64,000 nucleotides of DNA from Burkholderiales bacterium (GTDB lineage: Bacteria > Pseudomonadota > Gammaproteobacteria > Burkholderiales > JAHFRG01). Where the stretch lies: NCBI GenBank assembly GCA_035543335.1, contig DASZZH010000028.1:16392-80391 (forward strand), in the 5' to 3' direction. The notes under the pieces were generated by a model. That model saw nothing but the letters and a program-made list of their open reading frames with translations, did no database searches and was not told the origin of the DNA. Below are positions 16,107-31,938 of this stretch, piece by piece (the stretch's first letter is position 1; each line of letters starts with the position of its first letter). Made by a program: the position numbers and the translations under genes.

Positions 16107-18017
<1,911 letters not shown>

Positions 18018-18039: not shown

Positions 18040-18267
18040 TTGGAGACCGCAATGAAGAAAAAACATCAGTTAACCGCGATTATCGAGAAAGAGGGCAACG
18101 GCTACGTGGCGCTGTGTCCGGAATTTGATATCGCCAGTCAAGGCTACACCATTGAGGAAGCGCGCAGTAACCTGCAGGAAGCCGTGGAGCTTTTTTTCGA
18201 AACCGCCGATCCCACCGAAGTCAAGCAACGCCATCCGCCAATCCGGCCTGCCGCGAAATTTATTTGA
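18040..18267 (+). CDS. HicB-like (UPF0150) antitoxin, apparently orphan
   Basis: 75 aa; LTAIIEKEGNGYVALCPEFDIASQGYTIEEARSNLQEAVELFFE is the HicB N-terminal fold pattern. I recognise no HicA partner. Confidence 0.65.
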   Translation: METAMKKKHQLTAIIEKEGNGYVALCPEFDIASQGYTIEEARSNLQEAVELFFETADPTEVKQRHPPIRPAAKFI

Positions 18268-18336
18268 GACTTCATGAAGTGGTGCCGCTTTGCGGCGGCC
18301 ATCTCAAACGACCGCTTAGACACCGCGTTCGCGGGC

Positions 18337-19764
18337 TTAGCCAGGAAACATTCCGTGTCCCGGTGCCAGCACATTCTTCGGGTCGAACCGCGCCTTCGAG
18401 GCTTGGACCGATTTCCAAACGGGTCCATAGTGCTGGATCCAATCGGCCTGCGAAAACGGAATCGCGCTCGTCGTCAATCGTGTTCCGCCCATAGCGCGCG
18501 CCCGCTCGTATAGTGTGCGATTCATCGCGATCGCGGACGATATATCAGCCGATGCCGGCAGAACCCGCGAAATCTGGAATCTGAAGACGATATCTTCGTT
18601 CGGCAAACGGACGAGCGGACGCTTCATGGAGCTCCTCCTCCATGCAGACATGCGCGGAGTCACAAAGGCAGCCTCTTCAGGAGTGGCAAGCATTCTCGAT
18701 GTGTACTCGACGTATCGAGATGAGGGCAAGCAGAGGTACACAAAGGGTTTTAGCGTGGGAGCAGTACAGATAGTGCATACTTCTTCGCGGCGATAGTACT
18801 GCTCATAGGTCATCACTTTGGTGGTTTGGTTCGCAAACCTCAACCCCGCGAGCAGTGGCGCCTCACTTGGAGTATTCGGAGCGTCATAGAAAACTCCGCC
18901 TTCGACGTAATACGCGATGCCACCGCCCGGCTGTGCGGCGCCCCTCCCGTCGAGGTGGTTGAAGCGCCCAACCTTCGCGAGAAACGCCAGGTCAGCGGAG
19001 GCTGTCTGAAAGTCCTCGTAGTTCAACTTGAAGAACAGGACGTGAGTGGGTGCGGCAACCAGCTCCATGACGACTTTCACGATAATGCCGCATTGACCCA
19101 GCCCGCCAAGCATGGCGTTGAAGAGATCACTGTTGCGTTCGTCGGAACAGGTCACGAGCTGCCCATCCCCCGTCACCACCTGGAGTTCCAGAACACGGTC
19201 GACCTGAAAACCTTGGGTGTACGTCGTCACGGCAAATCCACCCGTACTGATCGTGCCGCCGACCGAAAGGAAGATATCGGCGATCACCGGCAGCGTTCGC
19301 TTGGAGGCGTTCGCTGCATCCAAAACGGCGCTCCACTTTGCTCCGGCGCCAACCTCGACGGCGCCCGAATTGATGATGCGGACGGAATTCAAACTACTGG
19401 AGTCGATGACGACTCCCCCCTCGGCCTGAGTTTGGCCAAAAAATGAATGGGCCTGACCCCGCATCGCAACTTTGAGGCCATGGCGGTTCGCGAACTGAAC
19501 CAGCTTCACGATATCTTGAGCCGAGCCGGGTTTGAGCACAGCGATCGGCAGCCGATGCACGATGCGTCCAAAGTCGTTCGCAGCCGCCTGCAGCGCAGCA
19601 TCGTCGAAGAGCAGTGTCCCGCTGAGATCCGTCAGGTCATTGCGCAGCAGCAGCCCCGGCGGCAGCGACGGCGCCAAGGAACTGCATGATGGCTGTAGCG
19701 CAAGGAGCGCTGCTCCGCCTGCGAGCCTTTTGACGAACTCGCGGCGAGAAATTATTCGTTCCAT
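18337..19764 (-). CDS. Tat-exported FAD-binding oxidoreductase (PCMH-type, cytokinin-dehydrogenase-like)
   Basis: 475 aa; twin-arginine signal MERIISRREFVKRLAGGAALLAL; FAD-binding domain pattern ...VAMRGQAHSFFGQ...GGTISTGG. Confidence 0.75.
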   Translation of the reverse strand: MERIISRREFVKRLAGGAALLALQPSCSSLAPSLPPGLLLRNDLTDLSGTLLFDDAALQAAANDFGRIVHRLPIAVLKPGSAQDIVKLVQFANRHGLKVAMRGQAHSFFGQTQAEGGVVIDSSSLNSVRIINSGAVEVGAGAKWSAVLDAANASKRTLPVIADIFLSVGGTISTGGFAVTTYTQGFQVDRVLELQVVTGDGQLVTCSDERNSDLFNAMLGGLGQCGIIVKVVMELVAAPTHVLFFKLNYEDFQTASADLAFLAKVGRFNHLDGRGAAQPGGGIAYYVEGGVFYDAPNTPSEAPLLAGLRFANQTTKVMTYEQYYRREEVCTICTAPTLKPFVYLCLPSSRYVEYTSRMLATPEEAAFVTPRMSAWRRSSMKRPLVRLPNEDIVFRFQISRVLPASADISSAIAMNRTLYERARAMGGTRLTTSAIPFSQADWIQHYGPVWKSVQASKARFDPKNVLAPGHGMFPG

Positions 19765-19853
19765 GATTTACCTCCCTTGTTCTGACGGCAGTCTTGTCGC
19801 ACGGGTGTCTAACTGGAAATGGACAGACCTCTCTAATCCGGAATTTCCGACGA

Positions 19854-20085
19854 TCAGATCGGGTGCCACGCGAGTTGCTCGATGCGCCCAAAGAATCTGC
19901 CCAAAAAGAGGCTCAGTGTCAAGCGGCTTTCAGCAAGCTGGAGGATGTAATAGCGGGCATGCCGGATCAGGTGCCCACCGGTCTTGAACACCCGCTGCTG
20001 TAGGCTTGTTAGTGACCCGCTCTGAATGGCACGGGGCAGGACCAGCCGACGCAGGAGAATACCGAGATTATAGGCGATCACCCAC
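19854..20085 (-). pseudogene. C-terminal fragment of a DDE transposase (IS4/IS1380-superfamily-like)
   Basis: ...SLTSLQQRVFKTGGHLIRHARYYILQLAESRL... resembles the conserved transposase C-terminus. The N-terminal ~80% is absent, cut at the boundary with the thiC-end repeat. Confidence 0.55.
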
Positions 20086-20148
20086 GGCATGGAGGAAAAA
20101 GCGGTAGAATTCCGGCAGGCGGGCGCTGAGGTGTATCGAAAACTCTGA
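20086..20148 (+). repeat. thiC 3'-end-like copy R1.1
   Basis: ggcatggaggaaaaagcggtagaattccggcaggcgggcgctgaggtgtatcgaaaactctga translates [20 protein letters not shown], cf. genuine ThiC end [20 protein letters not shown]. Confidence 0.8.
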
Positions 20149-20253: not shown

Positions 20254-20535
20254 ATGATCAAGTCCTTCCGTTCGCCCGACACGGAAGCGCTGTTTCATGA
20301 CAGGCAGGTCGCGCGTTTTCGAGCGATCGAGCGGCCGGCGCGCCGCAAGTTGCTGTATCTCAACCAGGCACGCTCGCTCCAGGACCTGCTTGTCCCGCCG
20401 GGTAACCGGCTGGAAGCGCTGAAGGGTAACCGCAAGGGCCAGCACAGCATCCGCATCAACGACCAGTGGCGGCTCTGCTTTCGCTGGTCGGAAGGACACG
20501 CATTCGACGTCGAAATCGTCGATTACCACGCATAG
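20254..20535 (+). CDS. higB: HigB-type toxin (plasmid maintenance system killer family)
   Basis: 93 aa; MIKSFRSPDTEALF...PPGNRLEALKGNRKGQHSIRINDQWRLCFRW is the HigB pattern. Confidence 0.9.
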   Translation: MIKSFRSPDTEALFHDRQVARFRAIERPARRKLLYLNQARSLQDLLVPPGNRLEALKGNRKGQHSIRINDQWRLCFRWSEGHAFDVEIVDYHA

Positions 20536-20543
20536 GTGAAGCC

Positions 20544-20843
20544 ATGACTACGAAACTGCTCGATCCAATTCCTCCCGGGGAGGTCCTCTACGAGGAATTT
20601 ATGAAGCCGCTCGGGGTGAGTATCAACGCGCTTGCGCGCGAAATCGCTGTTCCGCCCAATCGAATCAGCGAGGTCGTGAGCGGCAAGCGTGCGATCACCG
20701 CTGATACCGCGCTGCGGCTGGGTAAATATTTCGGTGTCTCCCCGGAAATCTGGATGGGGTTGCAGGTGGATTACGACCTGCGTCTCGCCAAGCGCACGAC
20801 CTGGCCGAAGACCGAGCGCCGCGTGCGGGTGCACGCAGCCTAA
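20544..20843 (+). CDS. higA: HigA-type HTH antitoxin
   Basis: Start at M27 of the track ORF (20544); PPGEVLYEEFMKPLGVSINALAREIAVPPNRISEVVSGKRAITADTALRLGKYFGVSPEIWMGLQ. Confidence 0.9.
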   Translation: MTTKLLDPIPPGEVLYEEFMKPLGVSINALAREIAVPPNRISEVVSGKRAITADTALRLGKYFGVSPEIWMGLQVDYDLRLAKRTTWPKTERRVRVHAA

Positions 20844-20854
20844 GGCCTGCACAT

Positions 20855-21147
20855 ATGGCCAAGCTCAAACCCATTCACCCCGGCGAAATTCTGATGGAAG
20901 AATTTCTGAAGCCGCTCAATGTGAGTCAGTACCGGCTCGCGGTGGATATTGACGTGTCCCCCGCCGCATCAATGAGATCGTGCTCGGCAAGCGCGGCATT
21001 ACCGCCGGCACCGCTCTTCGCCTCGCTCATTACTTCGGCATTTCACCGCAGTTCTGGATGAACCTGCAGGCCAAATATGATCTGCAGACCGAGGAAGACC
21101 GGATGGGAACCAAAGTCAAGAATTTGAAAGTGCTCAAAGCGGCTTGA
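20855..21147 (+). pseudogene. Second HigA-like antitoxin gene, frameshifted (no cognate toxin)
   Basis: MAKLKPIHPGEILMEEFLKPLNVSQYRLAVDIDVSP then the family sequence RRINEIVLGKRGITAGTALRLAHYFGISPQFWMNLQAKYDLQ continues in another frame. A 1-nt deletion sits in the C-run near 20958-20963. Confidence 0.7.
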
Positions 21148-21163
21148 CGAATCGCCAGACGAC

Positions 21164-21484
21164 ATGGCACTGACACGGGATTTCAAGGAAACGGTTCTGG
21201 CGCGCGCGCAGCGTGACGCGCGGTTCCGCGAAGCGCTGTTTACCGAGGCGATCAACGCCTACCTGGCCGGCGATACCACTGTAGGCAAAGCCGTTCTGCG
21301 CGATCTGGTGAACGCGACCATCGGATTCGAAGGTCTCGCGGCGGAAATCAACAAACCGAGCAAGAGCCTGCATCGGATGCTGGCCCCGCGCGGCAATCCA
21401 AACACCGAAAACTTTTTCGACATCGTGAGAGCATTGCAGAAAAAGACGCGCGTGAAGCTGCGTGTAACGGCAAAGCCGGTTTGA
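21164..21484 (+). CDS. Addiction-module antidote-type HTH protein (family usually paired with a RelE/ParE-type killer), no toxin adjacent
   Basis: 106 aa; MALTRDFKETVLARAQRDARFREALFTEAINAYLAGD...SKSLHRMLAPRGNPNTENFFDIVRALQ resembles this antidote family. Confidence 0.6.
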   Translation: MALTRDFKETVLARAQRDARFREALFTEAINAYLAGDTTVGKAVLRDLVNATIGFEGLAAEINKPSKSLHRMLAPRGNPNTENFFDIVRALQKKTRVKLRVTAKPV

Positions 21485-21503
21485 GCAGGATAAGGAAACA
21501 ATC

Positions 21504-21833
21504 ATGAGCACCGGAAAACTTAAGCGACTGCAAGCAGCTGGCTGGAAAGTCGGAACGGCGAAGGATTTTCTTAAATTGAGCCGGGAGGAGGCTGCGCTGG
21601 TTGAGCTGAGGCTCTCCCTGATCAGCGCCGTGAAGAAATCCCGCTTGAAGCACGGCATTTCCCAAATTGATCTCGCACAACGCTTGGGGTCGAGCCAGTC
21701 CCGCATAGCCAAGATCGAGGCGGGCGATCCCTCGGTCTCGCTGGACCTGATCGTGCGCGCGCTGATTGCCGCCGGCGCTACACGGCGGGACTTGCAAAAA
21801 GCCTTCACGTCTAGAGAACGAATTGCGGCCTGA
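21504..21833 (+). CDS. XRE-family HTH protein (antitoxin-like)
   Basis: 109 aa; GISQIDLAQRLGSSQSRIAKIEAGDPSVSLDLIVRAL. Confidence 0.6.
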   Translation: MSTGKLKRLQAAGWKVGTAKDFLKLSREEAALVELRLSLISAVKKSRLKHGISQIDLAQRLGSSQSRIAKIEAGDPSVSLDLIVRALIAAGATRRDLQKAFTSRERIAA

Positions 21834-21850
21834 GGACTCCGCCTATAACA

Positions 21851-21972
21851 AAGCTCAAACCCATTCACCCCGGCGAAATTCTGATGGAGGAATTCCTGAA
21901 ACTGAGGCGCTGGAGCGCGGCATGGGAGAAAAAGCGGTAGAATTCCGGCTGGCTGGCTGGGATGTGTATTAG
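21851..21972 (+). repeat. Chimeric scar: first ~17 codons of a HigA-like gene fused to thiC 3'-end-like copy R1.2
   Basis: aagctcaaacccattcaccccggcgaaattctgatggaggaattcctgaa | actgaggcgctggagcgcggcatgggagaaaaagcggtagaattccgg...tattag; left part equals 20861-20911, right part is ThiC-end-like. Confidence 0.75.
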
Positions 21973-22043
21973 AAAGTCTAACCAACAAGTATTACAGTCG
22001 TTGTATCTGATTGTGCGGAATTTAAATTAGGTGCTTGATGAAG

Positions 22044-23288
22044 TCATTTTTTCAGTAGGCCTAGAAGATACTTAGACCGCGTAGAGATGATGCTGCAAAT
22101 TTTGTCAACTAATATCTGCTCGTTTACCTGGAGGTTCAGTTCTGCCGTAACAACCTTAGCCGCGGCAATTATGGCCTCTGAGAGATCATTGATCTGTTTC
22201 CAAACAATGCGGGGGTTCGCCCCGGATTCTTTTGCGAGTACTTCCCAATGACGCTTCTGTAACCAGCTTGGCCTGTTCTCGCCACCAATCTTTAACGCAA
22301 GCTTGTCCGTAAGATCTAAATATGTCCCCGTACAAATTAGATCATAAAAGGGAGCAAGCGTAATTCCCTTCGTCGTGATCAAAAGAGACAGGTTTTTCGC
22401 GTGAGCATCAGCATTACCAATCAAGTAGTTGAAGATCACCCACAAAATAAGACCTAAACGATCTTTTGCTGCCTGAGAGCTGTATTTGGAAACAACGTCG
22501 AAACAAGCTGTAAGGCTAGGCCCGCCTTCTTTTTCGTATTTCTTACTTGAAGGCAAATTAAGCGCTTGGCAAAAATCAATTTGGTGGATGCGCGTAAGTT
22601 TTCCATTTGTTCCAATGACTCGATCGTATCTGGCGACCAAATAGATTGGGCCCGGTTTGCGAAGAATGGCTGATTTGGGAACAGGCAAGCCGACTTTATT
22701 GGCAAGCACCATGCAGAAGCATTCATTAACGGGCATATTTTCATAGTGTGGTGAACCTGGTTTAAGAATGTGCGAACTTGGGGCACCACCCAAAGGGAGC
22801 GACAGTTGTTCGCCATCATAGTAAACGGGCAACTTATTCTGCGCACCGGCTAAGGATAAGCGAAGCTCATCATCGGCGACCAAGAGAGGCCGTTTCTGCA
22901 TGTCCGCCAGTATCGTGCCAAGCTTCTTTTCACTAATTGGTGTATAGCTAACATCTGTCTTACGCACTTCCCCGACCGACCAAAGTGAGACGGCGCCTGC
23001 ACAATCCCCCCCAATTTCCTCAAGCAACCCAAATGTGTTTTTTTCCGACACACGTTTTAATTTCGCAATGGCAGCCCGAACTTCGCCTTCGGGTAACAGA
23101 TTCTCAAAAAATGGGCGCGATATTTCATCCGGAAACTCTTCAAGATGGCGTGGCATTGTTACCGATAATGGAAAGAATCGATCTGATCCTAGCCACTCCT
23201 TTGCATATGCAAAAAGGAGTTTGCCTCGCACTTCGCGTAACTGGCCCGCAAGATCCTGATTCACGTACACATCGAGGGCATCACTCAT
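22044..23288 (-). CDS. hipA: HipA-family serine/threonine kinase toxin
   Basis: Likely start M19 (23288, preceded by GGAG); ...LSLAGAQNKLPV...GNADAHAKNLSLL are HipA catalytic motifs; overlaps hipB by 8 nt. Confidence 0.9.
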   Translation of the reverse strand: MSDALDVYVNQDLAGQLREVRGKLLFAYAKEWLGSDRFFPLSVTMPRHLEEFPDEISRPFFENLLPEGEVRAAIAKLKRVSEKNTFGLLEEIGGDCAGAVSLWSVGEVRKTDVSYTPISEKKLGTILADMQKRPLLVADDELRLSLAGAQNKLPVYYDGEQLSLPLGGAPSSHILKPGSPHYENMPVNECFCMVLANKVGLPVPKSAILRKPGPIYLVARYDRVIGTNGKLTRIHQIDFCQALNLPSSKKYEKEGGPSLTACFDVVSKYSSQAAKDRLGLILWVIFNYLIGNADAHAKNLSLLITTKGITLAPFYDLICTGTYLDLTDKLALKIGGENRPSWLQKRHWEVLAKESGANPRIVWKQINDLSEAIIAAAKVVTAELNLQVNEQILVDKICSIISTRSKYLLGLLKK

Positions 23289-23523
23289 CTTTGCTCCAGA
23301 AGGGCTTCTTTGAGCCAAGTGATAACGCGAGTCCAAGGCCATTGATCACTTTGAGTGTCGTATCTAGCCGAACAGTGTCCTTCCCCCTTTCGAGGTCGGA
23401 AAGGAAACGGACCCCGACACCACACAGAAGAGCTGCTTCTGCCTGGCGTAATCCCATGGACTTTCGGGCAGCGCGAATTGCTCTTCCAAGATGCTTAACG
23501 GACGAAAGATCGATAATAGTCAT
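23281..23523 (-). CDS. hipB: HipB-type XRE HTH antitoxin
   Basis: 80 aa; LGRAIRAARKSMGLRQAEAALLCGVGVRFLSDLERGK. Confidence 0.85.
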   Translation of the reverse strand: MTIIDLSSVKHLGRAIRAARKSMGLRQAEAALLCGVGVRFLSDLERGKDTVRLDTTLKVINGLGLALSLGSKKPFWSKDE

Positions 23524-23547
23524 TGGCGTAAGTGGTCAAAATCAGTT

Positions 23548-23660
23548 TTCCCGAACGGGAATATTACATACTAGTGAGTACGGAGTCAAGGATATTTTTC
23601 CCGAACGGGAAACTTTGTGAGAAATACCGCCTATTACTAGAGTATTTTCCCGATTGGGAA
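23548..23660 (-). promoter_or_regulatory. Three 14-bp palindromes TTCCCG-NN-CGGGAA spaced ~50 bp apart (candidate HipB operators)
   Basis: TTCCCGAACGGGAA at 23548-23561 and 23598-23611; TTCCCGATTGGGAA at 23647-23660; all upstream of hipB. Confidence 0.6.
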
Positions 23661-23675
23661 TTCTAAGACCTAACG

Positions 23676-23882
23676 TCATTGAGCAAAGCCGTTCTGCGCG
23701 ATCTGGTGAACGCGACCATCGGATTCGAAGGTCTCGCGGCGGAAATCAACAAACCGAGCAAGAGCCTGCATCGGATGCTGGCCCCGCGCGGCAATCCCAA
23801 CACCGAAAATTTCTTCGGTATCGTGAGGGCATTACAGAAAAAGACGCGCGTGAAGCTTCGCGTGACGGCCAAAGCGGCTTGA
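23676..23882 (+). pseudogene. 5'-truncated second copy of the antidote-type HTH gene (cf. 21164-21484)
   Basis: Translation (G)KAVLRDLVNATIGFEGLAAEINKPSKSLHRMLAPRGNPNTENFFGIVRALQKKTRVKLRVTAKAA is nearly identical to residues 41-106 of the 21164 gene. Confidence 0.7.
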
Positions 23883-23949
23883 GCGCGGGATGGAGGAAAA
23901 AGCGGTAGAATTCCGGCAGGCGGGCGCTGAAGTGTATCGAAAACTCTGA
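23881..23949 (+). repeat. thiC 3'-end-like copy R1.3
   Basis: gagcgcgggatggaggaaaaagcggtagaattccggcaggcgggcgctgaagtgtatcgaaaactctga. It is followed at 23960-23972 by ATGGCACTGACAC, identical to the start of the 21164 gene. Confidence 0.8.
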
Positions 23950-24037
23950 ACAAAGCGATATGGCACTGACACCAGACCCCTGGAAAAAGAGTTCAAGGCA
24001 AATTCGCGCGCGAAGAAACGTGGGTGGTATTGACTGA

Positions 24038-24050
24038 TATACGGCGTATA
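24038..24050 (+). promoter_or_regulatory. Palindrome TATACGGCGTATA within a TTGACT...promoter-like region upstream of mazE
   Basis: Read directly. A third half-site ATATACG lies at 24058-24064. Confidence 0.4.
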
Positions 24051-24085
24051 GCCATAACATATACGTCCTGTCTTGGAGCACTGCC

Positions 24086-24331
24086 ATGCAATCACAAAAA
24101 ATTCTGCGTTGGGGCAACAGCCTGGCGTTACGTCTGCCCATGCCGTTCGCGCGCAGCGCGCAGCTGGCCGAAGGCTCCAGCGTCAAGTTGAGCCTTGCCA
24201 AAGGACGAATCATCGTCGAGCCGCTGCACGAGGCCGGTTTGAGTCTTAAAAAGCTGGTGAGTCAAATCACGGCGGGTAATCTGCACCGCGAAACCGACAC
24301 CGGGCAAGCCAAGGGTTTTGAAGTGTGGTGA
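24086..24331 (+). CDS. mazE: MazE/AbrB (SpoVT) type antitoxin
   Basis: 81 aa; MQSQKILRWGNSLALRLPMPFARSAQLAEGSSVKLSLAKGRIIVEP is the looped-hinge-helix AbrB-fold pattern. Confidence 0.85.
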   Translation: MQSQKILRWGNSLALRLPMPFARSAQLAEGSSVKLSLAKGRIIVEPLHEAGLSLKKLVSQITAGNLHRETDTGQAKGFEVW

Positions 24332-24676
24332 AACGCGCTTCGCGCTACCAGCCTGACCGCGGTGATTTGATGTGGCTGGATTTTAATCCCCAGGCAGGAC
24401 ACGAGCAGGCGGGCCGGCGTCCTGCTCTCGTCGTCTCCCCACTTGCTTACAATGCAAGAACCGGATTGGCGCTGTGCTGCCCCGTCACCAGCCATATCAA
24501 GGGCTATCCGTTCGAGATTTTGGTCCCCGATGGATTGAAGGTTTCCGGCGCCGTGCTTTCCGACCACGTCAAGAATCTGGACTGGAGCGCGACGCGCGGA
24601 ATTCATCGCGCGGTTGCCACAACGCGAGTTGGAGCAAGTTATTAATCGAGTCATTCTGCTGTTGAAGGGCAAATAA
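24325..24676 (+). CDS. mazF: MazF/PemK-family endoribonuclease toxin with probable C-terminal frameshift
   Basis: Track ORF 24325-24645: RGDLMWLDFNPQAGHEQAGRRPALVVSP...GYPFEI. After DHVKNLDW (about 24585-24597) the family C-terminus ARRAEFIARLPQRELEQVINRVILLLKGK* continues in another frame to 24676. Confidence 0.75.
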
Positions 24677-24691
24677 GTCCTGTCCAGCGCT

Positions 24692-24792
24692 CTGATGGAA
24701 AAATTCCTGAAGCCGAGGCGCTGGAGCGCGGCATGGAGGAAAAAGCGGTAGAATTCCGGCAGGCGGGTGCTGAGGTGTATCGAAAGCTATGA
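24692..24792 (+). repeat. Chimeric scar: HigA-like 5' fragment fused to thiC 3'-end-like copy R1.4
   Basis: ctgatggaaaaattcctgaagcc|gaggcgctggagcgcggcatggaggaaaaagcggtagaattccggcaggcgggtgctgaggtgtatcgaaagctatga; in the ThiC frame it reads [28 protein letters not shown]. Confidence 0.8.
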
Positions 24793-24823: not shown

Positions 24824-24889
24824 ATGGCGGCAGAACCCGAACAATTAGCGCGTGGAAAAATAGACCAACTGCTCATCGCTGCCAATTGG
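24824..24889 (+). pseudogene. Short 5' fragment resembling the N-terminus of a restriction-enzyme helicase subunit (HsdR-like)
   Basis: MAAEPEQLARGKIDQLLIAANW resembles the E..AR.KID..L..AGW N-terminal motif. Only ~22 codons remain. Confidence 0.35.
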
Positions 24890-24895
24890 CTAAGG

Positions 24896-25003
24896 CCCAT
24901 TGTGCACGTTTTGCCGCTGCAGCTCCTCGCCTACCATCTAGCGCTGCAAAGAAGCACCGATACGGACAAACCTAATGCATCTCGTGAAGTCGGCGAAGGT
25001 GGA
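24896..25003 (+). pseudogene. glmS: Decayed 3'-terminal fragment of glmS (glutamine-fructose-6-phosphate aminotransferase)
   Basis: [36 protein letters not shown] aligns by eye with the conserved GlmS C-terminus [36 protein letters not shown]. Confidence 0.7.
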
Positions 25004-25097
25004 ATAATTTACCCTCACCCTATTTTTATAATCCTTTGAGGTTTTTGTTTGCTATGACCATCCAAACGGAGATACGTAGCTAGGAATGGCATAGGTA

Positions 25098-26540
25098 ATG
25101 TCGAGCAAATCTACATTTTCCCAGCATTTTGGCCTAGATAAGTCCCAAGGCGAGCTCGATTTTGTCGACGTTCCACTGAATAGGGACATCGCCTTATTTG
25201 TAGATCCTTTTGCAATTTCGCAGCGTCCGGATCGGTGGTCGCAAGATTCCCATGCCCATCTCCTAGCATTCTTTCAAAAGGTCGTCGATAGTATTAGGAG
25301 CAACCGCAGTGATGAAGCGCGGAATCTTTTGGCCCATCTCAGGGAGCCCAACGAGACCAGATTCGGTCTTTCGCGCGGGAGGCCTCAAGGAGCCGGCATT
25401 GGTCCAAATCAGGCAGACCGCTTATTCCAGGCACTTCGAGAGTCAAACGCTGTAAAGACTGGATTTCTAAGTTCGCTTGAGGAATGTGAACTGATGATCG
25501 AGGGAATCGGCTGGGACAAGATATCCGATCTTACGACAAACGTCGTTCGGGGCAGGCTAGCAGAGTACACTTTCGATCAATGTCAATTGCACGGCGTCCC
25601 CGTACGTGACGTAGCATTAGGGGCATGTTTCTCTCTTAGCGCCCAAGATTGGGTCAACGAATACCTGCAACTGCCTGTTGTGGGTGGAAAGCCGATTTTG
25701 TTGGTTCCGAAGGCCATAGCGCGCTTCGAACCTTCCTATGATCACCAGCATTACTATCGCCACTTCGCTCTTGAGTTCCTGCAAGCGCAACACCTTGCGG
25801 CTGGCTCGAACCTTGTGCACGCCCTCAAGAATGGAAAACGCAAGGTGTACAAGAAGGATCTGCAAGCCAGATACCCATGCACTAAAGACTATCTTTTTCA
25901 GTTTTCGAAAGAACATCCAGAGGTACTTGTTCGATATCGTCAGCATCTTGAACAGCTGGAAAAACGAGGAATACACAGCATAGTAGAAGAGGACGATGAA
26001 CCAGGCATTGCATCAGCGCTTCGCGCCGCATTGGCGGCAATCCCGCCGGGCAATGCACATGCATCGAGTTACCACAAGCTCATGGTCGGCATCCTTGAAT
26101 TTCTCTTTTTCCCGGCGCTCCTCTGCCCGCGAAAGGAACAAGAGATTCACCAAGGCCGTAAGCGAATTGATGTTTTAATGGAGAACGGAGCAACCATCGG
26201 GATCTTCTATCGTCTCCATGCTACTCGAAAGCTTCCCAGCGCATTTGTGGCCTTCGAGTGCAAGAACTACACGACTGAGATCAACAATCCAGAGCTTGAT
26301 CAAATCGCCGGACGCTTCTCGCCGAATCGTGGCAGGGTTGGCTTCATCTGTTGCCGGCATTTTGAGGACAGGGCGCGCTTCGTTCAAAGGTGCCGGGACA
26401 CCCTCAAGGACGACAGAGGTCTCGTGGCCGCGGTTGACGACGCCACGATCGATTTGTGGCTATCCCTAATTGAGGCCCGTCGACGACGAGACCTTGACTC
26501 TGCTATCGCTAGGGTTATCGACGAGGTATGGATTTCGTAG
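25098..26540 (+). CDS. Uncharacterised 480-aa protein; unknown N-terminal ~330 aa plus C-terminal Mrr/PD-(D/E)xK-like nuclease motif
   Basis: C-terminal pattern ...MVGILEFLF...GRKRIDVLMENG...AFVAFECKNYTTEINNPELDQIAGRF (D358, E387-x-K389; nt 26169-26264). Stop is 31 nt upstream of mod on the same strand. About 50% GC, lower than the backbone. Confidence 0.6.
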   Translation: MSSKSTFSQHFGLDKSQGELDFVDVPLNRDIALFVDPFAISQRPDRWSQDSHAHLLAFFQKVVDSIRSNRSDEARNLLAHLREPNETRFGLSRGRPQGAGIGPNQADRLFQALRESNAVKTGFLSSLEECELMIEGIGWDKISDLTTNVVRGRLAEYTFDQCQLHGVPVRDVALGACFSLSAQDWVNEYLQLPVVGGKPILLVPKAIARFEPSYDHQHYYRHFALEFLQAQHLAAGSNLVHALKNGKRKVYKKDLQARYPCTKDYLFQFSKEHPEVLVRYRQHLEQLEKRGIHSIVEEDDEPGIASALRAALAAIPPGNAHASSYHKLMVGILEFLFFPALLCPRKEQEIHQGRKRIDVLMENGATIGIFYRLHATRKLPSAFVAFECKNYTTEINNPELDQIAGRFSPNRGRVGFICCRHFEDRARFVQRCRDTLKDDRGLVAAVDDATIDLWLSLIEARRRRDLDSAIARVIDEVWIS

Positions 26541-26571
26541 AGATTCAATGTAAAGTGGTAGAACTTTCCCA

Positions 26572-28515
26572 ATGAACGAGAAGATCATTACCAACGAACC
26601 CGAGAGGCTTGATCTACGTTCGCATGAAATCGCGGACGACAGGAAGCAGGAGCTGTTGCGCCTGTTTCCCGAAATCCGCACCGAGGGCGGCAAGCTCGAC
26701 TTCGACCTGCTCGAGCGCGCGCTGGGCGAAACCGTGGACGTGGGCAAGGAACGCTACGGCATGAACTGGCCGGGAAAGGCCGATTGCTACAAGACCATCC
26801 AGATGCCCAGTCTCGGCACGCTGCGCCCGTGCCCGGAGGAAAGCGTCAACTTCGACACTACCGAAAACCTCATCATCGAGGGCGACAATCTGGAAGTGCT
26901 CAAACTCCTGCAGAAGTCATATTTGGGTAAGGTGAAGATGATCTACATCGACCCGCCCTATAACACCGGTAATGATTTTATTTACCCGGACAACTACTCT
27001 GAGTCCCTGCAAACCTACCTGGAATACACCGGGCAGACGGATACCGAAGGGCGGAAGTTCAGTACCAATACGGAAGCGGATGGCCGCTTCCACTCGAAGT
27101 GGCTGAACATGATGTACCCGCGCCTGTATCTAGCGAGGAATCTGTTACGGGAGGATGGCATCGTTTTCATTAGTATCGATGACTTTGAGTATGACAATCT
27201 CAAAAAACTATGCGATGAAGTGTTTGGTGAAGAGAATTTCCTTGAAAACATAATATGGAAAAAACGTTATGGCGGCGGTGCTAAAGAAAAGTTCCTCGTC
27301 TCGGTTCACGAATATATTCTTTGCTACGCTAGGAACCTCGACACAATTGCACCTTTATTCGTTCCACAGACGCAAGAATCTATAGAACGGTACTACACGC
27401 TGAAGGACAAGAACTATGCGCAGCTTGGCCCGTATCGCACCCACCCGCTCGAAGCAACTAAGAGCATGGGTGAAAGAAAGAATCTCGTTTTCCCAATTAC
27501 CGCGCCAGATGGCTCCGCAGTCATGCCGAAGAGACAGTGGTTGTGGTCACGAGAGCGAGTCGATGAAGCGTTAAAAAAAGATGGGCTGGCCTTCCTAAAG
27601 GATAAGGATGGTAACTGGTCGGTACATACAAAGCAATATCTAAAAGACGAGGATGGAAATGTTCGCCAGAGCAAGGCATTTTCGATTATCGATAATGTAT
27701 TCACTCAACACGGCACGAACGAAATATTGAATCTGTTTGGTGACGCCCAAATTTACTCATTTCCAAAACCATCAAAGCTGTTGATACCGCTGCTGAATCT
27801 TGCAACTTCTGAATTAGATTCTATTGTTTTGGATTTTTTTGCCGGCTCTGGTAGCATTGCCCACGCTGTCCTCGACCTGAACAAGCAGGACGGCGGCAAC
27901 CGCAAGTTCATCCTCGTCCAGCTACCCGAGCCACTTGACCCTAATGATAATGCTCAAAAAGCAGCCTATGATTTCTGTAAGGTCAATAATTTTGCAACCA
28001 ACATTGCCGAAATCACCAAGGAGCGCGTCCGTCGTGTTATCAATAAGCTCAGCGACGAAGGTGTGGGCAAGCTCGATCTGGAAGGCGCCACAAAGCAGGA
28101 CCGCGGCTTTCGCGTCTTCAAGCTAAGCGAGTCTAACTTCAAACCATGGAATGCCGAAGTGGCACACGAGGCGAAAGTGCTAGAGCAACAGCTTGAGATG
28201 CACGTCGATCACTTCCGTGAGGGCCGTACGGCCGAGGATCTACTCTACGAGATCCTGCTCAAAAGTGGCTTTGCGCTTACCACGCCGGTCGAAACGCTCA
28301 CGCTTGCGGGCAAGGCCGTGCATAGCGTCGCGAGCGGTGCGCTTTTCATTTGCCTAGAGCGCGAACTGACGCTCGAACTCGTTCGCGCGATGGCTGACAA
28401 GAAACCCGAGCGCGTGGTCTGCCTCGACGAAGGTTTCGCCGGCAACGATCAGCTCAAGGCCAACGCCGTCCAGCTCTTCAAGACTAAGGGCGTCACCAGT
28501 TTCAAGACGGTGTGA
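26572..28515 (+). CDS. mod: Type III restriction-modification DNA methyltransferase (Mod), N6-adenine, beta-class motif order
   Basis: 647 aa; motif IV IYIDPPYNTGNDF (about 26950) precedes motif I DFFAGSGS (about 27835), with a long variable region between. Confidence 0.92.
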   Translation: MNEKIITNEPERLDLRSHEIADDRKQELLRLFPEIRTEGGKLDFDLLERALGETVDVGKERYGMNWPGKADCYKTIQMPSLGTLRPCPEESVNFDTTENLIIEGDNLEVLKLLQKSYLGKVKMIYIDPPYNTGNDFIYPDNYSESLQTYLEYTGQTDTEGRKFSTNTEADGRFHSKWLNMMYPRLYLARNLLREDGIVFISIDDFEYDNLKKLCDEVFGEENFLENIIWKKRYGGGAKEKFLVSVHEYILCYARNLDTIAPLFVPQTQESIERYYTLKDKNYAQLGPYRTHPLEATKSMGERKNLVFPITAPDGSAVMPKRQWLWSRERVDEALKKDGLAFLKDKDGNWSVHTKQYLKDEDGNVRQSKAFSIIDNVFTQHGTNEILNLFGDAQIYSFPKPSKLLIPLLNLATSELDSIVLDFFAGSGSIAHAVLDLNKQDGGNRKFILVQLPEPLDPNDNAQKAAYDFCKVNNFATNIAEITKERVRRVINKLSDEGVGKLDLEGATKQDRGFRVFKLSESNFKPWNAEVAHEAKVLEQQLEMHVDHFREGRTAEDLLYEILLKSGFALTTPVETLTLAGKAVHSVASGALFICLERELTLELVRAMADKKPERVVCLDEGFAGNDQLKANAVQLFKTKGVTSFKTV

Positions 28516-28525
28516 ACCGTATGCG

Positions 28526-31504
28526 ATGAAGCTCCAATTCGACGCCAATCAACAGTTCCAGCTCGATGCCGTCGCGGCCGTCACGGATCTCTACGACGGT
28601 CAGCCGCAGGGCGCGCCGGAGTACGCCGTGATCGACATGGGCACTGGAATGGGCCTGTTTACCGGCCAGCAGCAGACCGAGCTGGGCGCAGGCAATCAGT
28701 TGCTGGTGGCGGAGGACAAGCTGTTGGCGAACACTCGCGCTCTTCAGACCCGCAATGACATTGAGGTTTCCGACCCAAAGGCGGCGCTTGAAACGTGGGA
28801 GCTGTTCGACGGCCCTGCTAACCAGACGCGCCACTGCCCGCACTTCTCGGTGGAGATGGAGACCGGTACCGGCAAGACCTACGTTTATCTGCGCACTATC
28901 TTTGAGCTCTCGCGGCGTTACGGTTTCCAGAAGTTCATTATCGTGGTGCCGACCGTGGCGATCCGAGAAGGTGTGCTGAAGAACATCGAAATCACCGCCG
29001 ATCATTTCCGCGCGCTTTACAACAACCTTCCCTTCGAGCACTTCGTCTACGACGCACGGAAGGTCAACCGGCTGCGGCAGTTTGCGACCAGCAACACGCT
29101 GCAGATCCTGGTTATCAACATCGACGCTTTCCGCAAGAATTTCACTGGCACTGAGGAAGAACAGAAGAGCAACGTGATCTATAAGGAAAGCGACAAGCTC
29201 TCAGGCCGGCAGCCGATTGAGTTCGTGCAGGCGGCGCGTGCTGTCGTAATCATCGACGAGCCGCAGAGCGTGGACAGTACCGACAAGGCGCAGGAGGCGA
29301 TCAAGGCGCTTAACCCGCTGTGCACGCTGCGCTACTCCGCCACGCACCGCAACCCGTACAACCTGGTGTACCGGCTCGATCCGGTGCGCGCTTTCGAGCT
29401 GAAGCTAGTCAAGCAAATCGTAGTGGCGAGCGCGGCGGCGGACGGAGCGGCAAACGATGCTTTCGTGCGCGTGGAAAAAATTGACTATAAAAATGGCATC
29501 AAGGCCAAGCTGCGCATTCATGTGCAGGGAACAAGTGGGCCGAAGGAGAAATCCGTTATGGTGAAAAATGGCGCGGACCTCCTTACCCTTTCGAATGAGC
29601 GGGCCTGCTACGCGCAGGGGTTTTCCGTGGCCGAGATCAACGCCGAGCCGGGCAGCGAGTTCGTGCGCTTCAGCAATGGCCGGACGTTGCGCCTCGGCGA
29701 GGAAACGGGCGGCATGCGTGAGGACGTGTGGCGCACCCAGATCAAGCACACGGTGAAGCGGCACATGGAGAAAGAGCTGCAGCTGAAAGCCCGCGGCATC
29801 AAGGTGCTCAGTCTCTTTTTCGTCGACCGGGTGGCCAACTACCGCGACTACGACGCGGCAGGCCAGCCGGTGAAGGGCAAGTTCGCCAAGGTGTTCGAAG
29901 CAGAACTTGCAGCGCTGGCAAAGGACGAACGCTTCCGCGAACTGGAGTGGCTCAAGCAACCAATGGACAAGCTCCATAACGGCTACTTTGCCCAGGACAA
30001 GAAGGGCGTGCTCAAGGACACGCGCGGCGACACACAGGCCGACGACGAGGTCTACAACCTTATTATGAAAGAGAAGGAGCGCCTGCTTTCTCTGGATGAA
30101 CCGCTGCGCTTCATCTTCAGCCACTCGGCGCTGCGCGAAGGCTGGGACAACCCGAATGTGTTTCAAATCTGCACGCTCAATGAAACCCGAAGCGCGGTGA
30201 AGAAGCGGCAGGAAATCGGTCGCGGCATGCGTCTGCCGGTGGACCAGAACGGCCTGCGCGTCTTTGACGAGTCGGTGAACAAGCTCTATGTCATGGCCAA
30301 CGAGAGCTACGAGGATTTCGCCCGCGCCTTGCAGACTGAGTACGAAGAAGAATGCGGCGTAACCTTCGGCAAAGTGCCGCTCACTGCGCTTGCCAAAATC
30401 ATTCGGGTGGTGGACGGCGAAGAACGCCCGATTGGGCATGAGGCGGCGGTCACGATACGAGACGCGTTAGTGAATCAGAAGATGCTCGACATAGAGGGGC
30501 GCATCCAGCCGGTGTTCGACCCGAAGCGCAAGGACTTCGAACTGGAACTGCCGGAGGCACATCGTGAGTTGGCGCCGGCAGTCATTGATCTGCTCGCGAC
30601 GTATCAGATCGAACGGCACATTCGCCGGGAGCGGGATGACGGGCCCAACCTGCTCAAGAAGGAGGTCACGCTCAGCCCGGAATTCCAGGCACTTTGGGAT
30701 CACATCAAGCCGAAGACGACCTTTCGGGTGGAGTTCGAAACCGAGAAGCTGGTCACACGGGCAGTCGATGAGCTAAAGCGCATGGAGAAAATCGAGATCC
30801 CCAAGATTCATGTCATCACGGGAAAAGTAGAGGTTACGAAGGGTGGCGTTACAACGAGGGCCACGGGTGCGGCCCAGGAACTAGCTAGTTACAGCTCGCG
30901 CCCCATACCTGACGTACTTGCCTACCTGCAGAACGAAACCGAGCTGACGCGATCAACACTGGTCCGCATCCTCAAGGAATCGGGACGGCTCGTTGAGTTT
31001 TTCAACAATCCGCAGCGATTCATGGATGCCATGGTAGCGATTCTCAAGCATGAGTTGCACCGCCTGCTGGTGGATGGTATCAAGTACGAGCGGATCGATG
31101 GCACGGGCTCGGAAGCGGAGTGGGAGATGCTGCTCTTCAAGAACGAGGAGCTGATTAACTATCTGACGGCGCTGCAGGTGAACAAGTCGGTCTACGAGTA
31201 TGTGGTCTACGACTCGGAGGTGGAGCGCGAGTTCGCCAAGCGTCTCGACCAGCGCGAGGACATCAGGCTCTTCGTGAAGTTACCCGGCTGGTTCGAGATC
31301 GACACTCCTGTGGGCAAGTACAATCCTGACTGGGCCATTGTGAAGCACGACAACCAAACGCTTTACCTTGTGCGCGAAACCAAAGGCACTAAAGATTTCA
31401 TGAACCTCCGCACCAGCGAGGCGGACAAGGTGCGATGCGGGCAGAAGCACTTCGAGACATTAGGTGTTCCGTTTGCTGTGGCAGTCACGGCAGACGAGGT
31501 ATGA
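28526..31504 (+). CDS. res: Type III restriction enzyme Res subunit (helicase-nuclease)
   Basis: 992 aa; Walker A METGTGKTY, DEAH-variant VVIIDEPQS, SALREGWDNPNVF, C-terminal PD...ExK nuclease (YNPDWAIV...LYLVRETKG). Confidence 0.92.
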   Translation: MKLQFDANQQFQLDAVAAVTDLYDGQPQGAPEYAVIDMGTGMGLFTGQQQTELGAGNQLLVAEDKLLANTRALQTRNDIEVSDPKAALETWELFDGPANQTRHCPHFSVEMETGTGKTYVYLRTIFELSRRYGFQKFIIVVPTVAIREGVLKNIEITADHFRALYNNLPFEHFVYDARKVNRLRQFATSNTLQILVINIDAFRKNFTGTEEEQKSNVIYKESDKLSGRQPIEFVQAARAVVIIDEPQSVDSTDKAQEAIKALNPLCTLRYSATHRNPYNLVYRLDPVRAFELKLVKQIVVASAAADGAANDAFVRVEKIDYKNGIKAKLRIHVQGTSGPKEKSVMVKNGADLLTLSNERACYAQGFSVAEINAEPGSEFVRFSNGRTLRLGEETGGMREDVWRTQIKHTVKRHMEKELQLKARGIKVLSLFFVDRVANYRDYDAAGQPVKGKFAKVFEAELAALAKDERFRELEWLKQPMDKLHNGYFAQDKKGVLKDTRGDTQADDEVYNLIMKEKERLLSLDEPLRFIFSHSALREGWDNPNVFQICTLNETRSAVKKRQEIGRGMRLPVDQNGLRVFDESVNKLYVMANESYEDFARALQTEYEEECGVTFGKVPLTALAKIIRVVDGEERPIGHEAAVTIRDALVNQKMLDIEGRIQPVFDPKRKDFELELPEAHRELAPAVIDLLATYQIERHIRRERDDGPNLLKKEVTLSPEFQALWDHIKPKTTFRVEFETEKLVTRAVDELKRMEKIEIPKIHVITGKVEVTKGGVTTRATGAAQELASYSSRPIPDVLAYLQNETELTRSTLVRILKESGRLVEFFNNPQRFMDAMVAILKHELHRLLVDGIKYERIDGTGSEAEWEMLLFKNEELINYLTALQVNKSVYEYVVYDSEVEREFAKRLDQREDIRLFVKLPGWFEIDTPVGKYNPDWAIVKHDNQTLYLVRETKGTKDFMNLRTSEADKVRCGQKHFETLGVPFAVAVTADEV

Positions 31505-31631
31505 GAGATAAGAATGGGTGCGATCATGGGGGAGTAAAAATAGGCTCAGATTCGATTTCTGAGTTACGGCCTGTGATCCTTGCACTCCGGAGTGCCGCTT
31601 GGTGCGCGAGGCAAATGTTCCTCACACCGGT

Positions 31632-31735
31632 GTGAGAATATGACAGACATTGAAATCATCACCTCGCAGCAAAAACCTACCGAGGGGATGGTGACGCTGA
31701 CCCATGTCATCTACGCGCTGCACGCTTTCAGCGCG
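31632..31735 (+). repeat. R2.1: truncated copy of the 5' end of the membrane-protein gene at 39527
   Basis: gtgagaatATGacagacattgaaatcatcacctcgcagcaaaaacctaccgaggggatggtgacgctgacccatgtcatctacgcgctgcacgctttcagcgcg encodes MTDIEIITSQQKPTEGMVTLTHVIYALHAFSA, cf. resident MGIDIPQSKPTEGMVTLTHVIYGLHAFSA. Confidence 0.85.
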
Positions 31736-31927: not shown

Positions 31928-31938
31928 GCAGTTGACGC

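Follow-up and report, generated by a model that had tools for sequence, protein, structure and literature searches.

The region downstream of thiC in the 64,000-nucleotide stretch of DNA analysed here (the window) raises the question why the same junction, between the start of a HigA-like gene (higA2) and the 3' end of thiC, is found twice. Two answers had been offered by a sequence-only reading, namely a site-specific crossover core leaving an attR-like product, or one ancestral scar of which a duplicate was made afterwards. The sequences named in that reading were all present where it had placed them; the wider picture, in which displaced thiC tails and the cargo of each are stacked over the whole of 18-36.7 kb, had been missed. 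Coordinates given below are those of the window and, unless marked otherwise, of its plus strand.

The window carries one full-length thiC (16146-18017; NCBIfam ThiC equivalog NF006763, 1083 bits) and four orphan thiC 3' stubs, designated c1 to c4. A 23-mer of these thiC-end copies occurs at four window sites (20094, 21927, 23895 and 24738) with none expected from shuffles, and one 22-mer is identical in 4/4 stubs, which have a constant right edge (stop codon plus ~5 nt). Stub c1 (20085-20148) starts at about -62, borders a transposase fragment on its left and ends in ..QAGAEVYRKL*. Stub c2 (21893-21972, by alignment) ends in ..EFRLAGWDVY*, c3 (23879-23949) starts at about -68, and c4 (24704-24792), which starts at about -80, is followed by a widely shared hsdR-like remnant. 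As the stubs show only about 60-75% identity to the tail of the resident thiC, they were not copied from that gene.

The window was compared with related loci, which are MAGs or metagenome contigs all retrieved via one exact 22-mer, so that conservation of this 22-mer among them is given by construction. Stub c1 and the 140 nt downstream of it match the thiC tail and downstream DNA natural to locus L003 at 95% identity, the similarity beginning at CGGCATGG. In L003 this tail is followed by HigB, an intact HigA2 and an 'antidote' gene, and the c1 unit has the same arrangement; the natural gene end of the L003 type is thus found in the window 2 kb downstream of thiC, as c1. The resident thiC itself is 90-100% identical to that of L003 up to about -150, and then 73, 70, 67 and 60% over the last ~120 nt. 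Its body resembles those of its relatives while the last ~105-130 nt form a foreign tail; the alignment revealed a base-by-base change to the VKQGG allele with a switch point near GATTACGCAGC, so that a conserved body gives way sharply to a divergent 3' end. Wherever a VKQGG tail occurs in the related loci compared, HicB(A) comes next. The foreign tail most likely represents the newest displacement. The NCBIfam ThiC profile stops at residue 587 of 623, so that the last 36 residues of the window ThiC lie beyond it, and we know of no toxin function for this swapped tail.

Between and behind the stubs lie five cargo units. The presumably newest, U0 (18040-20090, unstranded; Pfam), comprises a HicB-like::HicA fusion, in which a ~240-nt deletion joined the HicB-like gene to the last ~49 nt of HicA (alignment to positions 2852-3311 of L001), an FAD oxidoreductase (18337-19764, minus strand) and a C-terminal fragment of a DDE transposase (19854-20090, minus strand). 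U1 (20254-21833; Pfam and NCBIfam) carries genes for HigB (20254-20535), HigA1 (20544-20843), HigA2 (20855-21147, short of 1 nt), an 'antidote'-type protein (21164-21484) and an XRE antitoxin-like protein (21504-21833). U2 (22044-23670, minus strand; Pfam) has a low G+C content (0.46-0.51) and consists of HipA (22044-23342), HipB (23281-23523) and an operator-like repeat region (repeat D16). U3 (24086-24678; Pfam) encodes MazE (24086-24331) and a frameshifted MazF (24325 to about 24678). U4 (24826-31504; PADLOC and Pfam), which would be the oldest, carries the candidate defence gene PDC-M36A (25098-26540) and the mod (26572-28515) and res (28526-31504) genes of a type III restriction-modification (RM) system. 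It begins with two fused fragments (24826-25010) without a Pfam match, which, on reading their translations against the HsdR and GlmS termini, are putatively hsdR-N-like and glmS-C-like.

We consider it probable that the units stacked in 18.0-36.7 kb arose as thiC underwent 'C-terminal displacement' time after time, the higA2::thiC junction being one illegitimate joint. Incoming DNA of a related bacterium, acquired by transformation or another route, would pair with the conserved thiC body and supply its own divergent thiC 3' tail together with the toxin-antitoxin or defence cargo downstream of it. The far end of the incoming segment would be sealed inside the recipient thiC tail by an illegitimate joint with a few bases of microhomology, and the old tail would persist as a stub, linked to its old cargo and shifted downstream.

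The distribution of breakpoints was examined across the related loci, where the same kind of multi-stub array is present in independent assemblies (e.g. L001, L002 and L005). The left breakpoints of the stubs fall at a minimum of 11 positions (about 12: -165, -155, -150, -107, -105, -86, -80, -77, -68, -62, -52 and -37). The hsdR'-linked stub of the c4 type recurs with its downstream DNA in L001, L002, L006, L008, L009, L012, L016 and L017, behind at least seven different left junctions. Microhomology is present at the joints: TTTCTGAA between higA2 and thiC, the 11-nt identity CGCGACCATCG at an antidote/hsdM-like joint of L001, of which both reciprocal junctions are present, GCRGCCTGA in the XRE and higA2 stop regions, and about AAGCG between antidote gene and thiC. 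Many stub junctions lie 0-26 nt from an intact upstream stop codon; this is tidier than random illegitimate joints predict and counts against the displacement account.

A further scar, joining the end of an antidote gene to a thiC end, had been pointed out before and was confirmed at 23870-23890. Here the 3' 202 nt of a second antidote copy (23679-23882; 93% identical to 21285-21486, repeat D4) are fused to c3 through the overlap of about AAGCG, the fused gene taking its stop codon from thiC out of frame (CTT GAG / CTT AAG). The same junction is found in L001 (twice), L009 and L016. An isolated copy of the antidote gene's initial 13 nt, ATGGCACTGACAC, does indeed lie at 23960-23972, 10 nt past the thiC stop of c3 (two matches in all, none expected). 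Since the spacer ..CGAT before the ATG of this remnant matches L003, it appears to date from a time when thiC and the antidote gene were neighbours, before the MazEF segment cut in.

The parent of the repeated junction is higA2 (20855-21147), which has suffered a 1-nt deletion at about 20958 and is 99% identical to the intact higA2 of L003. The intact L003 sequence matches the HigA family TIGR02607 with 110.3 bits (cutoff 47.7), and HigA1 does so with 107.2 bits. In front of c2, the first 56 nt of higA2 are retained (21845-21900) with the start codon mutated to ATA and the natural post-XRE spacer upstream; spacer and fragment together (21825-21900) are 86% identical to 20835-20910 (repeat D7), and the adjacency of XRE and higA2 is natural in L020, L022 and L017. 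In front of c4, only higA2 nt 36-56 remain (21 nt, 24691-24711), and the left end of this fragment, where it meets the MazF-distal 14 nt, looks like a second junction of more recent date. The overlap at the c2 junction, TTCCTGAA (21893-21900), corresponds to higA2 nt 48-55 and thiC about -89. At these positions higA2 and the L002-type thiC alleles have the 8-nt TTTCTGAA in common, which is a chance 8-mer between two unrelated genes and within which the joint would have formed. The decamer CCTGAAGCCG, described earlier as shared by both junctions, is correct for c4 only; c2 reads CCTGAAACTG, and the true overlap of the parents is TTTCTGAA.

The two copies of the junction are alike in one further respect. 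Both read TTCCTGAA, the TTC variant, whereas all nine higA2 copies seen have TTTCT(G/C)AA (TTTCTGAA); TTCCTGAA is also absent from all natural thiC alleles seen. This shared derived variant argues for a single ancestral illegitimate joint, later copied by homologous exchange via the conserved stub head, as the better fit to both junctions; the second answer of the sequence-only reading is accordingly the one we prefer, although not in the form of a recent local duplication. That reading had also held that identical flanks on both sides would reduce the junctions to one recent duplication. Such flanks were not found: c2 and c4 share ~90 nt and are unrelated beyond it, and in register they agree at 63/69 positions (91%) up to GAATTCCGGC and at 19/34 (56%) in the tail (Fisher p = 6e-5), a contrast which alone is no proof of a crossover inside the stub because the tail is likewise where natural thiC alleles chiefly vary.

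A single origin would explain the double occurrence in the following way: having formed on one occasion, the junction would since have travelled along with exchanged DNA. A segment made of thiC tail, cargo and a stub head with foreign DNA joined in front of it could enter any related thiC via two homologous crossovers, one in the thiC body (left arm) and one in the conserved stub head of 45-70 nt (right arm), and such an exchange would set the same left junction before a different tail and cargo. In the case of c4, a later event involving the MazEF segment would have trimmed the higA2 fragment to 21 nt. Comparable cases of one left junction with different tails are provided by the antidote::stub junction in three contexts and by L008 versus L010, and in these, too, derived bases are shared between different contexts. 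Among the related loci, the higA2::thiC junction was not seen, only the window carrying it, and neither an intermediate XRE-higA2'::stub-hsdR' array nor a natural thiC with the c2 tail adjoining HipA was recovered; the case for a single origin therefore rests on one shared nucleotide and parsimony.

Alternatively, serial displacement may have produced the architecture while the junction formed twice, by independent illegitimate events at the same microhomology: higA2 would have been joined once to a LAGWDVY-tail allele (beside HipBA) and separately to a QAGAEVYRKL-tail allele (beside the hsdR remnant). As TTTCTGAA ranks with the longest exact matches that higA2 and L002-type thiC tails have in common (8-9 nt at most), it is a plausible preferred joint; moreover, the two tails are very different (19/34), their cargo is unrelated, and higA2 and thiC tails are both common enough in such arrays to meet repeatedly. 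We nevertheless regard recurrence as unlikely. It leaves unexplained the occurrence of TTCCTGAA in both copies and in none of the nine higA2 copies or natural thiC alleles seen. In addition, breakpoints are scattered in both genes: after XRE, higA2 is cut in various contigs at 27, 56, 63 or about 90 nt, or has been lost whole by deletion between GCRGCCTGA repeats, and thiC is cut at 12 positions, so that coincidence of both coordinates is improbable. The derived bases shared by recurring junctions of other types agree with inheritance combined with exchange. Recurrent formation would be favoured if TTC higA2 alleles or ATTCCTGAA thiC alleles exist and the phylogeny of the junctions follows the tails.

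Could the thiC-end repeats instead be att sites of integrative elements or cassettes, served in trans by a site-specific recombinase as in tandem accretion or integrons, with the crossover at CCTGAAGCCG or in a core inside the conserved GAAAAAGCGGTAGAATTCCGGC? The units are cassette-like in size (1-3 kb), the repeat has a constant right edge and a 22-mer identical in four stubs, the same left junction precedes different right-hand cargo, and several junctions lie just past stop codons like attC sites. The constant edge and the 22-mer are expected anyway of coding sequence (..EEKAVEF..) that ends at a stop codon. Searches with Pfam, PADLOC and NCBIfam revealed no integrase or recombinase in the larger ORFs of the 18.7 kb island (18-36.7 kb) or in 20 further window ORFs; none was found either in the large ORFs of L001, L006 and L007 or in precomputed Pfam annotations for L015-L028. 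The sole recombinase-type match is the 78-aa DDE transposase fragment, which is dead. Folding energies of the stubs equal those of shuffled sequences (z = 0.16, -0.19 and 0.00), indicating no secondary structure, and no dif- or attC-like symmetry was noticed on reading them. The left boundaries at about 12 positions, with truncated genes as left flanks and only the right edge fixed, led us to reject an integrative element with att at the gene 3' end, as did the lack of a recombinase in the ORFs examined; an integron cassette array was rejected because the scanned ORFs contain no integrase and the stubs lack attC-type folding. Given also the variable higA2 breakpoints and the chance nature of the 8-mer, the site-specific core proposed earlier finds no support, and we judge any att-based explanation very improbable.

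On the other side, the thiC island is bordered by a mirror image of the 3' stubs, namely the 5' end of a gene 'X' for a small membrane protein, present as five stubs (31629-36650; repeat D2, by alignment). They start at 31629, 32935, 34148, 35083 and 36543, their left edge being constant and their right edges variable, and the cargo between them encodes Fic, SocA/Panacea, VapBC and Fic (Pfam). We count this array in favour of serial displacement; for the att explanation, a second array on the same island would require a second site-specific system. Longer versions of 'X' are P0123 and P0124.

An assembly artefact, in which a metagenomic strain mixture gave rise to the array or brought both junction copies onto one contig, deserves consideration, as the window belongs to a MAG contig and many strain variants of the locus coexist in the same soil samples. 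Each junction is unique and shorter than the assembly k-mer (k141), and must thus exist in reads; repeats between units measure less than 110 nt or have diverged (93%), and so lack the length to misdirect a graph built at k = 141; and comparable arrays are found in the independent assemblies L001, L002 and L005. An artefact of this kind is hardly credible.

If serial displacement built the array, one can speculate that the stubs are more than debris. New tail, cargo and stub head together might act as a knock-in fragment by which toxin-antitoxin and defence cassettes spread in a lineage of soil Burkholderiales in an integrase-free, integron-like manner, at the ends of core genes (the 3' end of thiC and, mirrored, the 5' end of the membrane-protein gene). 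Addiction modules could stabilise such an array against deletion between its repeats, and those found here may serve as guards of this kind. We put this forward as a tentative possibility.

Among known systems, the closest are the rhs, cdiA and T6SS effector loci, in which C-terminal displacement with orphan arrays has been described (Jackson et al. 2009; Kirchberger et al. 2017, PMC5361080). In displacement of the T6SS type, a new 3' end with its linked gene or genes pushes the old one downstream, for which homology-facilitated illegitimate recombination (HFIR) without an integrase was proposed (PMC5361080). The thiC locus resembles these loci in having a full gene with a conserved body and orphan 3' fragments that each carry cargo of their own, the newest lying nearest the gene. 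It differs in that the displaced gene encodes the housekeeping enzyme ThiC rather than a polymorphic toxin, and in that the island is flanked by a mirrored array of 5' stubs from a second gene. Furthermore, a toxin-domain tail with a cognate immunity gene is not found here: the ThiC tail lies outside the profile, and the cargo (HigBA, HipBA, MazEF, HicBA, RM, PDC-M36A) consists of independent toxin-antitoxin or defence modules and confers no immunity to the displaced tail.

As cited in PMC5361080, HFIR is known from natural transformation (de Vries & Wackernagel 2002; Prudhomme et al. 2002; Meier & Wackernagel 2003). Like the scheme proposed here, it has a homologous anchor on one side, the other end joining at 3-10 bp of often G+C-rich microhomology, with small deletions or duplications of recipient DNA at the joint. 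The transformation cases are laboratory events of very low frequency, whereas the thiC locus shows natural footprints, many of them at one locus. With tandem accretion of integrative islands it shares 3'-end direct repeats that part foreign blocks and a gene that stays intact as a new end is supplied; it differs in the lack of an integrase in the scanned ORFs, the repeats of 37-165 nt, the truncated genes at the left edge, the units of only 1-3 kb and chance microhomology in place of a common core. Compact toxin-antitoxin cassettes in a long, one-way, repeat-separated array recall chromosomal integrons, but here IntI and attI are lacking, the repeat is a coding fragment without attC-type hairpin potential, and the boundaries are not fixed. 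The mechanism is thus one already known from displacement of the rhs/T6SS type and from HFIR; what is new is its occurrence at a housekeeping gene with toxin-antitoxin and defence cargo.

Downstream of the full-length thiC gene (16146–18017; NCBIfam ThiC equivalog, 1083 bits), reading and alignment revealed four orphan thiC 3′ stubs: c1 (20085–20148), with a transposase fragment on its left, c2 (~21893–21972), c3 (~23879–23949) and c4 (~24704–24792). A 23-mer of these thiC-end copies occurs four times downstream of thiC, with none expected from shuffled sequences. Each stub ends with a stop codon, and mutual similarity is lost ~5 nt further on. As the tail of the resident thiC is only ~60–75% identical to the stubs, they are not copies of that tail. 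The swapped part of ThiC is its non-conserved tail, and the NCBIfam family profile ends 36 residues short of the C-terminus. A folding test of the stubs revealed neither an attC-like nor a hairpin structure. Exact-protein look-ups with the ThiC, the antitoxin-like XRE protein and the MazE of the window gave no match.

The region between 18.0 and 36.7 kb is an island without core genes; 20 further ORFs of the window outside it are ordinary core genes. It carries a HicB-like gene, an FAD oxidoreductase, a dead transposase fragment, HigB, HigA1 and a second HigA-family gene (higA2, 20855–21147), an antidote-type gene (‘antidote’, 21164–21484), the XRE gene (21504–21833), HipBA (G+C 0.46–0.51 versus 0.55–0.60), MazEF with a frameshifted toxin, a PDC-M36A candidate, a type III restriction-modification (RM) system, two Fic genes, SocA/Panacea and VapBC. 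Neither an integrase nor any other recombinase was found in this island.

Several of these modules are damaged or mosaic. The HicB-like ORF (18210–18280) runs into the final ~49 nt of HicA through a ~240-nt deletion relative to the related loci L001 and L002, so that the toxin HicA is lost in the window. Three spaced TTTTCCCGAACGGGAA-like inverted-repeat boxes upstream of HipB (23546–23660) look like putative HipB operator sites. MazF is inactivated by a frameshift near its 3′ end (24560–24678); the natural reading would stop at TAA 24676–24678. The PDC-M36A candidate (PADLOC, 1.2e-43), 480 amino acids long and without Pfam family, lies directly upstream of the type III RM pair mod (26572–28515) and res (28526–31504) in the region 25098–31504. 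The fragment after c4 (24826–25010), which gave no Pfam match, we take to be an hsdR-N-like start (MAAEPEQLARGKIDQLLIAANW) joined to an end resembling the GlmS C-terminus (..PLQLLAYHLALQRSTDTDKP..), a naming that relies on inspection of its translation and on related sequences present in L001 and L012. Fragments of the glmS end directly precede thiC stubs in L001 (2120–2215) and L012 as well, and an exchange between the thiC island and a similar island behind glmS is suggested. An hsdM-like 5′ fragment (MNTATIVQKLWNYCNVLRD..YGDYVEQ; 36296–36520, also 31745–31900 and 35200–35350) is split by unrelated sequence of ~150 nt, which is repeated in part (92% between the two copies upstream of Fic genes) and may be a small insertion element.

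Left of c2 stand the first 56 nt of a HigA-family gene with its upstream spacer (21825–21900, 86% identical to 20835–20910), whereas c4 has just 21 nt of that gene on its left (24691–24711). Left of c3 are the 3′-terminal 202 nt of another ‘antidote’ copy (93% identical to 21285–21486). An intact gene of a related MAG, which belongs to TIGR02607 HigA (NCBIfam), is 99% identical to the higA2 gene of the window. The window copy is inactivated by a deletion of 1 nt in a C run, at 20958. At the ‘antidote’::thiC junction (23870–23885; also L001 2755–2765 and 5045–5055) the fused gene ends with ..TAKAA* and the normal one with ..TAKPV*; the stop codon is supplied by thiC, out of frame, as CTT GAG or CTT AAG. 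The isolated 13-mer ATGGCACTGACAC reported at 23960 by the sequence-only reading is indeed present.

At base level, higA2 reads GAAGAATTTCTGAAGCCGCTC around the joint, and natural thiC has GGGGTTTCTGAAACTGAGGCG in the L002 type and ..TTTCCGAAACCGA.. in the L003 type. Both parents have the overlap TTTCTGAA in common, which corresponds to nt 48–55 of higA2 and to about −89 of thiC, counted back from the end of the gene. Chance alone would give approximately one 8-mer match between sequences of 293 and 200 nt, so this identity is fortuitous, but a joint located exactly within it bears the signature of microhomology-mediated joining. The earlier description of these junctions was correct overall, except in how far the overlaps extend: the decamer CCTGAAGCCG assigned to both is true of c4 only, c2 having CCTGAAACTG. 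The alternatives GCC and ACC/ACT lie within the natural variation range of that thiC codon.

Related loci were gathered by scanning genome and metagenome collections for an exact 22-mer common to the four stubs; all of this material consists of MAGs and short contigs. A Bacteroidota contig (L004) was discarded as a chance 22-mer match. Multi-stub arrays like that of the window were found in L001, L002 and L005. Across all loci, the left breakpoints of the stubs lie at about −165, −155, −150, −107, −105, −86, −80, −77, −68, −62, −52 and −37. The stub preceding the hsdR-like remnant, which in the window is c4, has at least seven different left junctions across loci, and single left junctions precede differing tails and cargo. 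The ‘antidote’::stub junction, for example, has three continuations, one of them a VKQGG tail with HicB, and L008 and L010 have left flank and stub head in common and differ downstream. All ‘antidote’::stub junctions carry GCTT, versus GTTT in the one natural gene end seen.

Contigs collected from XRE-protein homologues showed that XRE–higA2 is a natural adjacency. What remains of higA2 is its first 27 nt in L015/L016/L025, 63 nt in L017 and about 90 nt in L022/L023. In L018, L019 and L021 the gene is wholly lost (~30 nt past the XRE stop) between near-identical GCRGCCTGA stop regions of XRE and higA2, so that ‘antidote’ directly follows XRE. L001 contains a reciprocal junction pair (1300–1330 and 2584–2610) at CGCGACCATCG, 11 nt that the ‘antidote’ gene and the start of an hsdM-like gene have in common. 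The pair flanks a 1.28-kb insert that holds Phd/VapC, a fragment of the glmS end, and part of thiC fused to the 3′ end of a Fic gene; a single crossover has left both its products, as after circle insertion or reciprocal exchange. The L001 equivalent of c1 is shortened by a deletion between CAGG repeats. This junction pair, the CAGG deletion and the HicB–HicA deletion of the window are further microhomology footprints. A recombinase was found in none of the related arrays.

A second array, on the far side of the island, consists of five 5′ stubs of a small gene, X (31629–31735, 32935–33005, 34148–34260, 35083–35189 and 36543–36650). They comprise the 5′ end of the ORF MTDIEIITSQ.KPTEGMVTLTHVIYALHAFSA.. 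and ~12 nt upstream of it; the left edge is fixed and the right edges are variable, with Fic, SocA/Panacea, VapBC and Fic cargo between the copies. In its layout, this array thus mirrors the thiC stubs (‘N-terminal displacement’). X matches only six database proteins and no Pfam or NCBIfam family, and no intact copy was found in the window; two longer versions (P0123 and P0124) suggest a small membrane protein. In L026, an X stub stands after a Tle1-like gene and before the same VapBC.

Partial duplications of core-gene ends beside foreign DNA are commonly read as proof of site-specific integration, and a site-specific crossover core had also been considered for the higA2::thiC junction. Such a system is very improbable here, because the stub boundaries are scattered, the left edges are truncated genes, neither a recombinase nor a stub structure was found, and a second gene has a mirror-image array. 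The junction found twice is a scar and not a recombination site. That the arrays are assembly artefacts can hardly be credited, since the junctions are all unique in sequence and shorter than the assembly k-mer, and since similar arrays are present in independent assemblies.

The architecture of the locus is a serial C-terminal displacement at thiC, in which the conserved body of the gene would serve as homologous anchor, the incoming DNA would supply a new tail with cargo, and its far end would be joined illegitimately within the divergent thiC tail of the recipient; the unit adjoining thiC would be the newest. The same scheme, based on homology-facilitated illegitimate recombination, was put forward for the orphan arrays at rhs, cdiA and T6SS effector loci (PMC5361080).

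A 197-kb MAG contig, L003, carries a plain thiC with its natural end, followed by exactly the DNA found after c1 and then by HigB, an intact HigA2 and ‘antidote’. Together with the next 140 nt, c1 is 95% identical to the natural thiC end of L003 and the DNA behind it, with similarity starting from CGGCATGG. In 30-nt windows, the resident thiC is 90–100% identical to that of L003 to about −150 and then 73, 70, 67 and 60%; at single-base resolution, the change to a VKQGG-type allele is seen near GATTACGCAGC. This allele is found as a stub in L001 and L002, always with HicB(A) next. The L003-like body, the tail switch and the match of c1 to L003 make the latest displacement directly readable: a foreign segment (new tail, HicBA, oxidoreductase and transposase fragment) took the place of the thiC stretch between about −130 and −62. 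The old tail, with the HigB unit still attached, now lies 2 kb downstream of thiC.

The c2 and c4 junctions both read TTCCTGAA. TTTCT(G/C)AA was present in 9/9 higA2 copies seen and TTCC in none of the natural thiC alleles seen. One origin of the higA2::thiC junction followed by spread is favoured, in line with the single ancestral scar given as one of two options by the sequence-only reading. This preference draws mainly on the shared TTC, and an intermediate array was not found; both points leave some weight with independent recurrent joints at the same 8-mer, which we consider unlikely. A second higA2::thiC junction was absent among the contigs from XRE homologues, though further arrays turned up. 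The antisense ORF across the c2 junction, used as protein query for the same junction elsewhere, gave no match, and neither did stub c2 plus HipBA in the plasmid collection.

Aligned in register, c2 and c4 are identical at 63 of 69 positions from CTGATGG to GAATTCCGGC and at 19 of 34 from that point to slightly beyond the stop (p = 6e-5, Fisher test). This contrast shows that the two stubs hold different tail alleles; how these were acquired is not given by the contrast alone. Its use as proof of a within-stub crossover was downgraded, as natural thiC alleles likewise diverge mainly in the tail.

With one origin and subsequent spread, a unit ending in a foreign fragment fused to a stub head could be transferred to a further related thiC through a pair of homologous crossovers, with the thiC body as left arm and the 45–70-nt conserved stub head as right arm. 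Such a transfer would place the same left junction before the recipient’s own tail and cargo, and would account for c2 versus c4, for ‘antidote’::stub in three contexts and for L008 versus L010. An order of five steps is consistent with the window. The truncated fusion higA2′(56)::stub would have arisen to the left of the hsdR-linked tail, and the MazEF segment would have joined within higA2′ at nt 36. The HipBA unit would then have arrived with a pre-formed ‘antidote’::stub, followed by the HigB...XRE-higA2′::stub unit from a relative and by the HicB unit.

The thiC locus is a clear counter-example to reading gene-end repeats as site-specific integration; for annotation, it cautions against labelling such repeats as att sites or the chimeric ORFs as genes. 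The thiC tail, presumed dispensable, is a landing pad for the repeated recombinase-free gain of toxin–antitoxin (TA) and defence modules, and each acquisition leaves a datable stub. If stubs act as homology arms, this would account for the spread and stacking of small TA and defence cassettes in uncultured soil bacteria in the absence of a dedicated mobility gene, and the order of acquisition could be read directly from the array.

No earlier description of thiC-tail arrays was found in the literature searched. The mechanism is already known, but the setting differs. In contrast to displacement of the rhs, cdiA and T6SS type, the displaced part is here the presumed dispensable tail of a housekeeping gene, the cargo consists of TA and defence genes unrelated to that tail, and a matching 5′-stub array is found on the other side.
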